This document shows positions 309-18,680 of a DNA stretch of 64,000 nucleotides, in pieces; the first letter of the stretch is position 1, and each line of letters begins with the position of its first letter. The position numbers and the translations under genes were made by a program. This DNA is from an uncultured bacterium. GTDB lineage: Bacteria > Muiribacteriota > Ozemobacteria > Ozemobacterales > Ozemobacteraceae. The notes under the pieces were generated by a model that did no database searches, was not told where the DNA came from, and was given only the letters and a program-made list of their open reading frames with translations. Location of the stretch: contig CAYMEN010000003.1 of NCBI GenBank assembly GCA_964389325.1, positions 62,502 through 126,501 of the forward strand, read 5' to 3'.

Positions 309-1141
309 ACCGGCAGATGGGAAAAAAATCGCCGACGCGCGGCATGACGCTGATGGAGGTCATGGTCGCCGTCGCCCTCGTTTCGCTCGTGTTCGGGGTC
401 GCATACCGGATCATGGACCAGGCCCGGCGGGAGACACGCAAGGGATTCTGGCTCCAGAAGGCAATCACCGAACTTCGCAACGGGACCCGCGCGATCTCGA
501 TGCGCCTGAAAAAGACGAGTTATCCGACGTCGGTCGTCCGGACCGGGGGCCAGCAGACCGTCATCTCATTCAAGGAAAAGAGGACCTACGACCATTCGGG
601 CCGCCTGCGGAACCTGGTCGTCAACAGTTCGAACGCCATGAACCTCGTGACGAAAACCGGCGTCGTGCGGTCGTCGGCTTCCGAGATCGTTCTGATGCGG
701 TTCCCCGTGTGCGTCCCCGAGATGGATATCGATTCATATACCCCTGGCATCATCACATGGGTCGAGGTCGTCATGGAGCCGCAACCCGACTTTTCCATCA
801 ACGGCCTTTCGCGTATTTTCCTCCGCGAACGTGACGACGCCTACGACACCAGAGCGCTCCCCGACCGGGCGTATGGCCTGTCGACCGCGTTCGATCCCGC
901 CCTCGCCGTCGCGAGCAGAAAAACCCTCATCGGCGACGTCGAGCAGGTGATGATCGACAAGTGGCCCATCGACGAACTTTCCGGCGTCCATGTGACGAAC
1001 GCGGGCACGGTTGGCACGACGACGAAAAAGAAGTATCTCGTCTCGTTGCGGATTGACTGCTTGAATCCCATCGACAAAGCGATGATGATTGGCGACCAGA
1101 GCGCCGTCACGGTCAACACCGACGTGAGCGTCTTTCCCTGA
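305..1141 (+). CDS. prepilin-type N-terminal cleavage/methylation domain protein (pseudopilin-like)
   Basis: N-terminus RGMTLMEVMVAVALVSLVFGVAY matches G-F/M-T-L-x-E prepilin leader plus hydrophobic helix. Confidence 0.6.
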   Translation: MNRQMGKKSPTRGMTLMEVMVAVALVSLVFGVAYRIMDQARRETRKGFWLQKAITELRNGTRAISMRLKKTSYPTSVVRTGGQQTVISFKEKRTYDHSGRLRNLVVNSSNAMNLVTKTGVVRSSASEIVLMRFPVCVPEMDIDSYTPGIITWVEVVMEPQPDFSINGLSRIFLRERDDAYDTRALPDRAYGLSTAFDPALAVASRKTLIGDVEQVMIDKWPIDELSGVHVTNAGTVGTTTKKKYLVSLRIDCLNPIDKAMMIGDQSAVTVNTDVSVFP

Positions 1142-1233
1142 GAGCCGGAACCGGTTCCTGTATCGCGGTTTTCCGACGACGCTGGCAACGACTTCGAGCG
1201 AGGTCGGGGCTTCAACCGTGGGTCATGCTCAGT

Positions 1234-1268
1234 CTGTAGAATCGCGAGAAGCTCCCGCGATTCTACAG
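1234..1268. terminator. perfect 13-bp inverted repeat CTGTAGAATCGCG/CGCGATTCTACAG with 9-nt loop; possible terminator or structured element between pseudopilin gene and trxA
   Basis: Read directly from sequence; no clear T-tract, so intrinsic-terminator assignment is weak. Confidence 0.3.
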
Positions 1269-1330
1269 GCTCGGGATCATCGGGTGGTCATCGTCCTTCG
1301 GACCTCCATGCGACCGCCGGTTGGCGGGCT

Positions 1331-4896: not shown

Positions 4897-8136
<3,240 letters not shown>

Positions 8137-13704: not shown

Positions 13705-14703
13705 TCAGATGGCGATGTCCCGGAGCATGGCGGCCGCGTCCTCCGGCGGGGTGGGGTTGATGTAAAAGCCGGAACCCCATTCGAAGCCGGCGACGTTCGT
13801 CAGTTTGGGAATGATCTCGAGATGCCAGTGGTAGAAGTCGCGGTAAGACTCGGAGCACGGGGAGCTGTGGAGCACGAAGTTGAACGGAATCCCCGGGAGC
13901 AGGGCTTCCAGGCGCTTGAGCGCTCCCTGCAGCGTCGCCGCGAACGAGTGCACGTGTTCGTTGTCGATGTTCTCGAAAAACGGCTGGTGCGTCTTGGGAA
14001 TGATCTCGATCTCGAAGGGAAACCGAGAGGCGAAGGGGCAGAACGCCATGAAATGCTCGTCCTGAATGATGATCCGTGAGGACTGCTCGGTTTCCTGACG
14101 AAGTATGTCGCAGAATATACATCTATCGTGATAATGGAAATACTCCCGCGCGCCGTCGAGTTCCTCCTCGATGCGCTTCGGGATGATCGGAGTGGCGATG
14201 ATGTGCGAGTGGGCGTGGGAGAAGTTCGACACGCCCCGACCGCTGTTTTTCACGATCATCAGGTGCTTGAACCGGGGGTTCTTCTTGATCTCGAGCAGGC
14301 GCTGCTTGTACGCCCAGATGACTTCGCGAACCATATCTATTGGTATTGATTGCAGCGTCTGCGTGTGCTGCGGGGTTTCGACGAGCACCTCGTGGATGCC
14401 GATCGAGTTCATCGCGTCGAACATGCCGATGCCTTCCCGGCCGGCGTCGCCGGCGGGAACGAGGATTGGATCGCGGTCGGGGATGACGCGGACCCACCAG
14501 CCCTTCTCGTTCGCGGCCGTGCCGGCCTTGCGGAACGACATCGTCTCGGCGGGAGTCAGCCGCTCGTTGCCTTCGCAGAAGGGGCACTCGGCGGTGTCAT
14601 CGGGCGCCCCGGTCGGAACCGGATAATCGTGCGGCCGTTTCCCGCGTTCGGGGGAGATGATCACCCACTGCTTCAGGACAGGGTCTTTTCTCAGCTGCGG
14701 CAT
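13705..14703 (-). CDS. galactose-1-phosphate uridylyltransferase-like protein (class I GalT / HIT superfamily nucleotidyltransferase; could be ADP-glucose phosphorylase-like)
   Basis: CPFC zinc motif, HxHxx nucleotidyl-histidine motif SHAHSHIIATP, overall GalT-like length and organisation. Confidence 0.7.
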   Translation of the reverse strand: MPQLRKDPVLKQWVIISPERGKRPHDYPVPTGAPDDTAECPFCEGNERLTPAETMSFRKAGTAANEKGWWVRVIPDRDPILVPAGDAGREGIGMFDAMNSIGIHEVLVETPQHTQTLQSIPIDMVREVIWAYKQRLLEIKKNPRFKHLMIVKNSGRGVSNFSHAHSHIIATPIIPKRIEEELDGAREYFHYHDRCIFCDILRQETEQSSRIIIQDEHFMAFCPFASRFPFEIEIIPKTHQPFFENIDNEHVHSFAATLQGALKRLEALLPGIPFNFVLHSSPCSESYRDFYHWHLEIIPKLTNVAGFEWGSGFYINPTPPEDAAAMLRDIAI

Positions 14704-15996: not shown

Positions 15997-16563
15997 ATGG
16001 GACGGAAGCGAACGTGTGAGCTCCCATTCTGCAAGGGCGTCGTTGAGGGTACCCGCAATAAGCGCCGGTGCGACAACGATCGGAACATCCATCTGCACCA
16101 GGTGATCTCGAAGAACGTGAAGAAGATCATGCGGTACATCGAAGTCCGCGACGATTTCACCGCGAACGACGTCAACCGCGATCTGTTCAAGAACCGCCTG
16201 GACAAAAATGAGAAGGGTTCCATGTACCGTCTCTTCCAGGCGATGGTTCGCGAAGAGTATCTCATCGAACTCGGCAAACGTGAAGGGCTGAAGGTGTATG
16301 CCTTCCACGGCCGGGCAGGCCGCGCGGTTCTCATCGACGAACCGGCTGCCGCGCAGTCCGCGCCTGTCTCGCAGCCTCTGACGCCGCGCGAACTGCTCAT
16401 CGGCAAACTGCGGGAGTTCGTGCACATGAAAAACGGCACCTGGAACCACGACGACTGGCTCTGGCTCGTGAACCGCCAGGACGTCCGCGACCTCGGCATT
16501 CCCGAGCACGAGCTCGGCGCCCTCCTCGAGGAAGAAAAAGCCCGCTACTGGCTGCACAGGTAA
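15997..16563 (+). CDS. hypothetical basic protein (Cys/Lys/Arg-rich N-terminus, possible zinc ribbon/nucleic-acid binding)
   Basis: AAAGAGG RBS; strong G/C third-position bias on + strand versus overlapping antisense ORFs; N-terminus RKRTCELPFCKG...KRRCDNDRN. Confidence 0.45.
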   Translation: MGRKRTCELPFCKGVVEGTRNKRRCDNDRNIHLHQVISKNVKKIMRYIEVRDDFTANDVNRDLFKNRLDKNEKGSMYRLFQAMVREEYLIELGKREGLKVYAFHGRAGRAVLIDEPAAAQSAPVSQPLTPRELLIGKLREFVHMKNGTWNHDDWLWLVNRQDVRDLGIPEHELGALLEEEKARYWLHR

Positions 16564-16588
16564 CCGCGGCGAAGCGTACGCACCGAGC

Positions 16589-16654
16589 GGCGCCGGATCC
16601 CCTCAGGGGTCCGGCGCCGTTTTCTTGTGCGCGCCCTGCAGGGCGCGGGTTTTT
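16589..16654 (+). terminator. two tandem hairpins with T-tracts downstream of the 15997-16563 gene
   Basis: GGCGCCGGATCCCC/GGGGTCCGGCGCC then TTTCTTG; perfect palindrome CGCGCCCTG/CAGGGCGCG followed by GGTTTTTCT. Confidence 0.5.
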
Positions 16655-16663
16655 CTCACGCAA

Positions 16664-16690
16664 GGAAAAGCCCCGCCTTTGGGGCGGGGC
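16664..16690 (-). terminator. rho-independent terminator for the minus-strand acidic-protein gene
   Basis: Stem GCCCCGCC/GGCGGGGC with 5-nt loop, followed on the minus strand by TTTTCC. Confidence 0.5.
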
Positions 16691-16734
16691 TTCTGGCATT
16701 ACCGGATGGGCCGGGCGGGGGGGGATCCGACGGA

Positions 16735-17097
16735 TTATTCCTCGTCGTCTTCCTCGTCTTCCTCGTCCTCATCGTCGAAGTCTTCTTCGTCTTCGTCGTC
16801 AAAATCTTCTTCTTCTTCGTCTTCGAAGTCTTCGTCTTCCTCGTCTTCTTCGTCGAACTCGTCTTCGTCGTCGAAGTCTTCTTCATCTTCGTCGAGGTCT
16901 TCTTCGTCTTCTTCGAGGTCTTCGTCTTCTTCGTCGTCGTCGAAGTCTTCTAAATCTTCTTCTTCTTCTTCTTCGTCTTCGAGGTCTTCTTCTTCGAGGT
17001 CTTCTTCTCCCTCGTCCTTCTCATCCTCGTCGACGTCTTCCCAGCGCTTCTTCGGAGACATCATCTCCTCTTCGATCAACCAGTCGTTCGTCGGCAT
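16735..17097 (-). CDS. hyper-acidic D/E-repeat protein (120 aa; non-repetitive N-terminus MPTNDWLIEEEMMSPKKRWEDV followed by about 90 residues of almost pure Asp/Glu with occasional Leu/Phe)
   Basis: AAAGGGGA RBS 8 nt upstream of the minus-strand ATG; own terminator hairpin downstream; the opposite-strand reading is a poly-Ser ORF without RBS. Confidence 0.5.
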   Translation of the reverse strand: MPTNDWLIEEEMMSPKKRWEDVDEDEKDEGEEDLEEEDLEDEEEEEEDLEDFDDDEEDEDLEEDEEDLDEDEEDFDDEDEFDEEDEEDEDFEDEEEEDFDDEDEEDFDDEDEEDEEDDEE

Positions 17098-17260
17098 GGC
17101 GAATATCCCCTTTCGTGCCTAGATGTTGAGTTATTGCGGATCGGGGGCAATAATGGCACAATGCCGGCGTCGTGTCAAGACAGAAAATAGTCAATATTGC
17201 ACATGCCGATGAAAACCGAGTTCAGCCAGTGCTGAAAACCTGCCGGGGTACCCGCCTTTC

Positions 17261-17289
17261 TTGACTTGCCCACCCTCTTCATGTATACT
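17261..17289 (+). promoter_or_regulatory. sigma-70-type promoter for ffh operon: TTGACT - 17 bp - TATACT
   Basis: Near-consensus -35 and -10 hexamers with 17-bp spacer, 48 nt upstream of ffh ATG. Confidence 0.5.
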
Positions 17290-17336
17290 GGCTCTTCCTA
17301 TTCTTCATTTCATACGTTGTATGTGAGGCGTGAACC

Positions 17337-18680
<1,344 letters not shown>

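Follow-up and report, generated by a model that had tools for sequence, protein, structure and literature searches.

Comparison with related loci strongly supports the view that the hyper-acidic open reading frame on the minus strand of this window (that is, of the whole 64-kb stretch of DNA that was analysed) is a real gene, and that the poly-serine frame lying antisense to it is not coding. To judge from the relatives that could be collected, conservation of the gene extends across Riflebacteria, an uncultured phylum. We think that the product of the gene may be a disordered polyanion which competes with nucleic acids for basic proteins, and that its N-terminus and the bulky residues scattered along its tail may aid its own translation; to this reading, taken as a whole and including the reality of the gene, we would assign a probability of roughly 0.4.

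The original prediction was of a 120-residue protein with a non-repetitive N-terminus and a tail made almost exclusively of Asp and Glu in a DEED/EEDL/FDDE-like periodicity, and this description is accurate. The protein (14.9 kDa, net charge -87) contains 91 D/E residues (76%, D:E 39:52) and 4 K/R. Its N-terminal segment, in which bulky residues are combined with a short Lys/Arg tract (SPKKRW), precedes a tail of 98 residues, 85 of them D/E, with 5 Leu, 6 Phe, 1 Gly and 1 Lys; the Leu and Phe residues stand singly, mostly 5-10 residues apart, and the longest uninterrupted D/E run reaches 13 residues (22 in orthologues). A degenerate 24-nt period (8 codons, FDDEDEED-like) scores best in Tandem Repeats Finder, with 8.3 copies and 70% matches. 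An ORF of this kind is far beyond chance: the window holds no second ORF with at least 50% D/E over 40 aa, and 60% D/E over 40 aa is reached by no ORF in the ffh neighbourhoods of 80 other bacteria (683 kb in all), among the matches listed. The AlphaFold model of the single sequence (pLDDT 55, pTM 0.13, no secondary structure) is consistent with an intrinsically disordered protein. Extreme negative charge, low complexity and absence of a predicted stable structure, the properties that define the class of disordered polyanions, are all found here, and no signal peptide is present.

Table 1. Features of the acidic gene and its surroundings (positions in the window)
Feature	Position	Strand	Remarks
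Hyper-acidic protein CDS	16735..17097	-	120 aa + stop; orthologues at the equivalent position in 42 related loci
Non-repetitive N-terminal segment, residues 1-22, MPTNDWLIEEEMMSPKKRWEDV	17032..17097	-	Alignment of orthologues
Polyacidic tail, residues 23-120	16738..17031	-	Composition, spacing statistics, 24-nt period, AlphaFold
Ribosome-binding site AAAGGGGA	17106..17113	-	8 nt 5' of ATG
Putative sigma-70-type promoter of the acidic gene, TTGACA-17-(TG)CATTAT	17150..17178	-	-10 hexamer ends 52 nt 5' of ATG
Intrinsic-terminator-like hairpin, then T-run	16660..16692	-	Arms 16668-16677 and 16683-16692
Two hairpins terminating the 188-aa gene	16588..16647	+	16588-16619 and 16630-16647, T-run after the second
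Promoter-like site TTGACT-17-TATACT for ffh and the rpsP-khpA-rimM-trmD-rplS operon	17261..17289	+	ffh = 17337-18680
Convergent neighbour, 188-aa basic protein	15997..16563	+	Restricted to Riflebacteria
Antisense poly-Ser ORF, 165 aa, TTG start within the terminator region	16625..17122	+	By-product of GAN codons, no gene
Tandem paralogous GalT/HIT-like genes	13705-14703 and 14707-15777/15840	-	Pfam GalP_UDP_transf + DUF4921/DUF4931_N

The plus strand of the same DNA is indeed open as poly-Ser, as had been stated. This antisense reading arises because the acidic frame is built from GAN codons, whose reverse complement, NTC, reads as TCN (Ser) in a shifted frame. One could still argue that the poly-Ser ORF is the gene, or that we are dealing with a purine/pyrimidine repeat from which neither ORF is translated: the Ser frame is open in the window, and variation at the third position of GAN codons is synonymous in the TCN frame as well, so that the substitution pattern alone does not discriminate. 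For this reason the third-position bias between the window and one relative (1/1/28, L081) was set aside as coding evidence. We find this alternative hardly credible, however. In 22 of the 34 orthologous loci the Ser frame is interrupted by 1-6 stops, because Tyr codons read there as TAG, whereas all orthologues that are not truncated have a complete acidic ORF. Where the acidic frame has F, L, Y, I or V, the other strand would read K, R, M, T or a stop, with no conserved property. The poly-Ser ORF has no conserved start or ribosome-binding site and begins inside the terminators of its neighbour; the conserved promoter, ribosome-binding site, ATG and N-terminal motif all belong to the minus frame, which starts with Met-Pro in all complete orthologues but one (Met-Arg in L115). 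Finally, a repeat of this sort is prone to slippage, yet indels are in frame only, the length differences between close relatives (3, 6, 9, 12, 18, 24 and 222 nt) being all multiples of 3. The gene callers used for public records also choose the minus ORF. The original preference for the acidic strand, with poly-Ser as a by-product, thus agrees with the intact ORFs, the conserved signals in front of them and the antisense stops.

Codon choice in the acidic gene differs from that of the flanking ORFs, GAA being favoured over GAG in 30/30 loci and GAC over GAT in 29/30, at locus GC contents from 0.31 to 0.62; the window codon ratio is 41:11 in the acidic gene against 47:77 in the flanking genes (Fisher p = 1e-6). 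Mutation bias cannot explain both preferences, since one is AT-rich and the other GC-rich. They would be explicable by selection on translation, either for cognate decoding or for the avoidance of internal GGAG-like and ATG motifs.

The expression signals of the gene are strong. The ribosome-binding site GAAAGG(G/A)G (GAAAGGGG) is kept throughout the orthologues, 8-9 nt 5' of the start, and a perfect TTGACA -35 box with a near-consensus -10 box (TATATT/CATTAT) lies 51-60 nt upstream in 24 of the 25 distinct orthologous upstream regions, as against 26% of shuffles. A ribosome-binding site, a terminator hairpin of its own (16668-16692, with a minus-strand T-run), an ffh promoter beyond its 5' end and three hairpins separating it from the convergent 188-aa ORF had all been read from the window sequence beforehand, and each was recovered (Table 1). 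The gene is probably highly expressed. Its 5' UTR has no significant structure (z = 0.49), and Rfam and tRNA scans across the window were empty. The divergent intergenic region between the acidic gene and ffh (17098-17336, 239 bp) carries back-to-back near-consensus promoters, on the minus strand for the former and on the plus strand for the latter, about 83 bp apart; coordinated or competing expression of the two genes is possible.

Relatives were found through synteny, with the 188-aa neighbour as the anchor. A metagenome scan provided 41 loci (neighbour identity 51-96%), and 9 further loci came from look-ups of the database homologues of the 188-aa protein. A hyper-acidic ORF lies directly downstream of the 188-aa gene and convergent to it in 42 of the 46 loci with enough downstream sequence (gap 16-347 nt), many of these loci being near-identical strains, with about 15-20 independent lineages; it is always on the strand equivalent to that of the window. 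In L098 it is one gene further off, and in L113, L114 and L123 it is absent. Intact acidic ORFs preceded by the GAAAGG(G/A)G site are found in 35 loci, and in 4 more distant ones. Two checks proposed earlier, a search for homologues in related genomes and a comparison of repeat lengths, are covered by these loci, in which the tails differ in length among relatives and always in frame. The assignment to a phylum rests on the source names of the homologues of the 188-aa protein, which read Candidatus Riflebacteria/Rifleibacteriota, including Candidatus Ozemobacteraceae. Per genome, this phylum is noted for more unknown gene families than any other (PMC10849945).

Between two near-identical loci from one metagenome series (L108 5722-5952, 76 aa, and L109 2666-3124, 152 aa) the acidic tail differs by an in-frame block of 222 nt, which may be either a real repeat contraction or a collapse in short-read assembly. 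Smaller in-frame length differences (145-153 aa) are seen among L088, L089, L091, L092 and L117.

The alignment of the family (76-153 aa, net charge -49 to -114) shows that the N-terminal 20-30 residues are its only ordinary sequence. They follow the motif MP..(D/E)(D/E)hxhL..(K/Q)K.W(D/E)D, that is, MP, two or three bulky residues, an acidic pair, h-x-h-L, (A/P)(K/Q)K and W/Y-(D/E)-D; the window protein and some clades have the Lys tract, which is missing in the largest clade (AAQ(K/T)DW instead). The tails, of about 50-130 residues, are 45% D and 39% E; F (7%), L (4%) and Y (1%) make up nearly all the rest. Their hydrophobic residues (13% for F/L/Y together) occur singly, typically as (D/E)D-F-(D/E)D, about every 7-8 positions. 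Compared with a geometric model, spacings of 1-2 are too rare (11 observed vs about 107 expected), those of 6-9 too frequent (239 observed vs about 92 expected) and those of at least 12 again too rare, so the design of the tail is not random. Clades differ greatly in their D:E ratio (39:52 in the window, 89:20 in L105), and some have shifted almost entirely to Asp, for instance L102, L105 and L109 with 87-89 D vs 20-29 E.

As far as the family databases can tell, the acidic protein belongs to no described family, and it is already called a hypothetical protein in public metagenome-assembled genomes. It has no match in Pfam or NCBIfam at E<=1, nor in PHROGs or PADLOC. Queried with phmmer through a word index it gave nothing, the candidate lists being saturated at 8000 by acidic words, and a profile search built from 19 N-termini of the family gave nothing either. 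When 1.84 billion representatives were searched exhaustively with HMMER, a single 40-aa fragment was the only match, and look-ups of the exact sequences of the acidic and 188-aa window proteins found no identical entry. With Ffh as the anchor, Firmicutes-like loci (at most 63% identity) were obtained, without a hyper-acidic ORF among the matches listed. Synteny recovered about 40 orthologues of a family that HMMER and word-index searches nearly missed because of composition-bias correction and candidate saturation; family databases probably under-sample proteins of extreme composition. An origin in a phage or a defence system was considered and rejected, since PHROG and PADLOC matches are absent and the context is one of housekeeping genes.

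The convergent neighbour had been described as a basic, Cys-rich protein; basic it is (pI 9.4, net +7), but with only 3 Cys the second adjective was an overstatement. It has invariant C7/C12/C25/H32/H34 (a Cys3-His2 motif), a central winged helix that qualifies as a winged helix-turn-helix, a low-complexity linker, hypervariable in the family, which adds 0 to about 60 residues, and a C-terminal domain of four helices that is conserved (LREFV..K.G.WNH.DW). We detected 154 homologues; those with a source name all come from the phylum Riflebacteria and are called hypothetical. Two of them give weak matches to the Fur family (PF01475).

The usual gene order is two tandem GalT/HIT-like (DUF4921) genes on the minus strand, the 188-aa gene (+), the acidic gene (-) and ffh-rpsP-khpA-rimM-trmD-rplS (+). 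The ffh operon has moved away in L111, L112, L115 and L127, and an AAA gene takes its place in L129; in L122 it is the galT-like genes that are replaced. The 188-aa and acidic genes stay together in all these cases, a linkage through rearrangements that is suggestive but no proof; they are uncoupled in L098, L113, L114 and L123. The two genes are not co-transcribed, because they are convergent and each has its own terminator, and their adjacency could simply reflect a gene order that is generally conserved in the phylum.

Some further variations of this neighbourhood deserve mention. The GalT/HIT-like pair is kept in most related loci directly upstream of the 188-aa gene, and is inverted relative to it in L114. 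A 485-aa transposase-associated protein (DDE_Tnp_1_assoc; L128 3360-4817, plus strand, from a Riflebacteria metagenome-assembled genome) lies between the galT-like and 188-aa genes, the pair itself being undisturbed. The sole case of a gene intervening between the 188-aa and acidic genes is L098, where a 165-aa HD-domain-like gene with an HDTVEDT motif is found (833-1330, minus strand). In L112 a HicB-like antitoxin-type ORF (140 aa; 6866-7288, plus strand) replaces ffh downstream of the acidic gene, in a context otherwise unrelated to translation genes.

Among known proteins, the E. coli protein MsyB is also a small cytoplasmic acidic protein, and it came to light as a multicopy suppressor of secretion mutants; the acidic gene, for its part, adjoins ffh. 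However, MsyB is folded, has a far lower D/E content and lacks a repeat tail, and the acidic protein gave no Pfam/NCBIfam match to its family. The sole PDB matches of the acidic protein are to residues 96-170 of the B. subtilis RNA polymerase delta subunit, with a non-significant E value of 0.25 that reflects composition only. In layout the C-terminal region of delta (RpoE) looks similar: a D/E tract of about 80-100 residues, disordered, with interspersed L/F/I/Y and a short Lys tract before it. That region of delta has a net charge of -47 and takes part in RNA polymerase recycling (PMC7749165). Delta nevertheless possesses a folded N-terminal domain (residues 1-90; Pfam HARE-HTH) that docks on RNA polymerase, whereas the acidic protein has only about 22 N-terminal residues, a net charge about twice that of the delta region, and a home in Riflebacteria, not in Firmicutes. 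Membership of the delta family was therefore rejected, as the N-terminal domain of about 90 residues is absent and there is no Pfam/NCBIfam match.

Eukaryotic prothymosin-alpha and the acidic regions of Npm2 and Nap1 resemble the acidic protein in being small or modular disordered polyanions, with acidic runs in which aromatics are embedded. They bind basic nucleic-acid-binding proteins as polyelectrolytes and mimic the charge of DNA (PMC7661507 for prothymosin-alpha with histone H1; PMC10987829 for the Npm2/Nap1 regions). These are nuclear proteins with no detectable homology to the acidic protein, prothymosin-alpha is less extreme, and the likeness would be one of functional analogy only. 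Bacterial and phage DNA mimics imitate the DNA backbone with a negative surface and occupy DNA-binding sites (PMC8208478; PMC2926617). In contrast to the acidic protein, which is predicted to be unstructured, Ocr, ArdA, SPO1 Gp44 and CarS are folded and present their carboxylates on a defined scaffold.

A DNA mimic, a cation buffer and a chaperone-like tail had been suggested beforehand as possible functions, and they are still no more than possibilities. In the reading that we prefer, the acidic protein would be a free-standing disordered polyanion acting electrostatically; being an extreme polyanion without predicted structure, it could act only through charge and sparse anchor points. It would imitate a nucleic acid in competing for basic nucleic-acid-binding proteins, or serve them as a "charge chaperone", the aromatic and aliphatic residues of the tail providing anchor points and the N-terminal motif specificity. 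The most obvious candidate for a specific partner would be the 188-aa protein with its winged helix and Cys3-His2 motif. A dedicated 1:1 partnership between the two looks unbalanced, though, with about +7 facing -87, and this mismatch suggests a clientele broader than the 188-aa protein. One may go further and see in the two genes a Riflebacteria-specific module, in which the polyanion chaperones or antagonises a basic nucleoid or RNA polymerase-associated protein, and in which the difficulty of translating polyacidic sequences, which E. coli ribosomes fail to master, has been overcome by the ribosomes of the phylum or by the way the tail is built. Such a module would be a prokaryotic version of the principle seen in prothymosin-alpha with linker histone or in the delta subunit; in this complete form we consider the proposal improbable.

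A second part of the reading concerns translation. In E. coli, nascent poly-D/E chains destabilise the ribosome and abort translation, an effect that is counteracted by about 30 preceding residues or by bulky residues near the peptidyl-transferase centre (10.1101/2021.02.02.429294; PMC11162784), and 20D-like runs are described as missing from the E. coli proteome (PMC11162784). The N-terminal segment and the evenly spaced bulky residues of the acidic protein may let the ribosome translate a polyacidic chain without premature abortion. A conserved bulky lead-in of 20-30 residues is in keeping with such a constraint, as is the scarcity of long uninterrupted D/E runs, and both may reflect the ribosome as much as a binding partner; the periodic bulky residues of the tail can indeed be explained by translation alone, without any role in binding.

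Alternatively, the protein might be a high-capacity, low-affinity buffer or store of cations (Mg2+, Ca2+, polyamines, possibly transition metals), comparable to the acidic tail of calsequestrin and needing no protein partner. This would account for a tail with 84% D/E and net charges down to -114, for strong expression signals, and for a tail length that is free to vary in frame, as expected if only bulk charge counts. The almost complete shift to Asp in some clades, L102, L105 and L109 for example, would also suit it, as Asp is often favoured for Ca2+ binding. It leaves unexplained the conserved N-terminal motif and the linkage with the winged-helix gene, it must treat the regular F/L/Y spacing as purely an aid to translation, and it finds neither a signal peptide nor a metal-transport context to lean on; we regard it as plausible but rather unlikely. 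A general anti-aggregation "electrostatic shield", similar to Hero proteins, that would keep basic proteins (newly made ribosomal proteins, for example) in solution, seems to us a little less probable again. One argument for it is that the acidic gene is divergent from ffh/rpsP/khpA/rimM/trmD/rplS in most loci, with back-to-back strong promoters; the predicted disorder suits it too, and hyper-acidic E. coli proteins are described as solubilising fusion partners (PMC11594932). The linkage with ffh is lost in L111, L112, L115, L127 and L129, however, while the acidic gene stays with the 188-aa gene, so that of the two linkages the one with ffh is weaker, and the shield overlaps with the competitor model to the point that sequence alone does not separate them.

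The same abortive translation could be turned into a regulatory argument, the ORF being an mgtL-like leader in which destabilisation of the ribosome on the polyacidic tract senses Mg2+ or the status of the ribosome, the product itself being irrelevant. In E. coli the abortion on polyacidic runs is Mg2+-dependent (10.1101/2021.02.02.429294; PMC11162784), and the D/E runs reach 13 residues here and 22 in orthologues. But no gene follows on the same strand, the acidic ORF ending at its own terminator and facing a convergent gene; with its length, conserved N-terminal motif, tail design and optimised codons it is unlike a leader peptide, and the 22-30 or so non-acidic residues that precede the tract should suppress abortion. 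An mgtL-type role was rejected on gene layout, and we hold the whole idea to be very unlikely.

Whatever the product does, the acidic gene is a conserved gene that occurs in nature and seems to be strongly expressed, although about 100 acidic codons follow one another in it almost without a break; its product is among the most acidic conserved bacterial proteins that one could design. The family therefore offers a direct test of how the bacterial ribosome, or the design of the nascent chain, copes with polyacidic tracts, the bulky tail residues and the lead-in of about 25 residues being specific hypotheses that can be mutated. Disordered polyanions that stand on their own have been studied thoroughly in eukaryotic nuclei and hardly in bacteria; a phylum-wide family with a winged-helix partner candidate would extend that biology to bacteria. 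Two tryptic peptides, PTNDWLIEEEMMSPK and WEDVDEDEK, would be diagnostic of the acidic protein.
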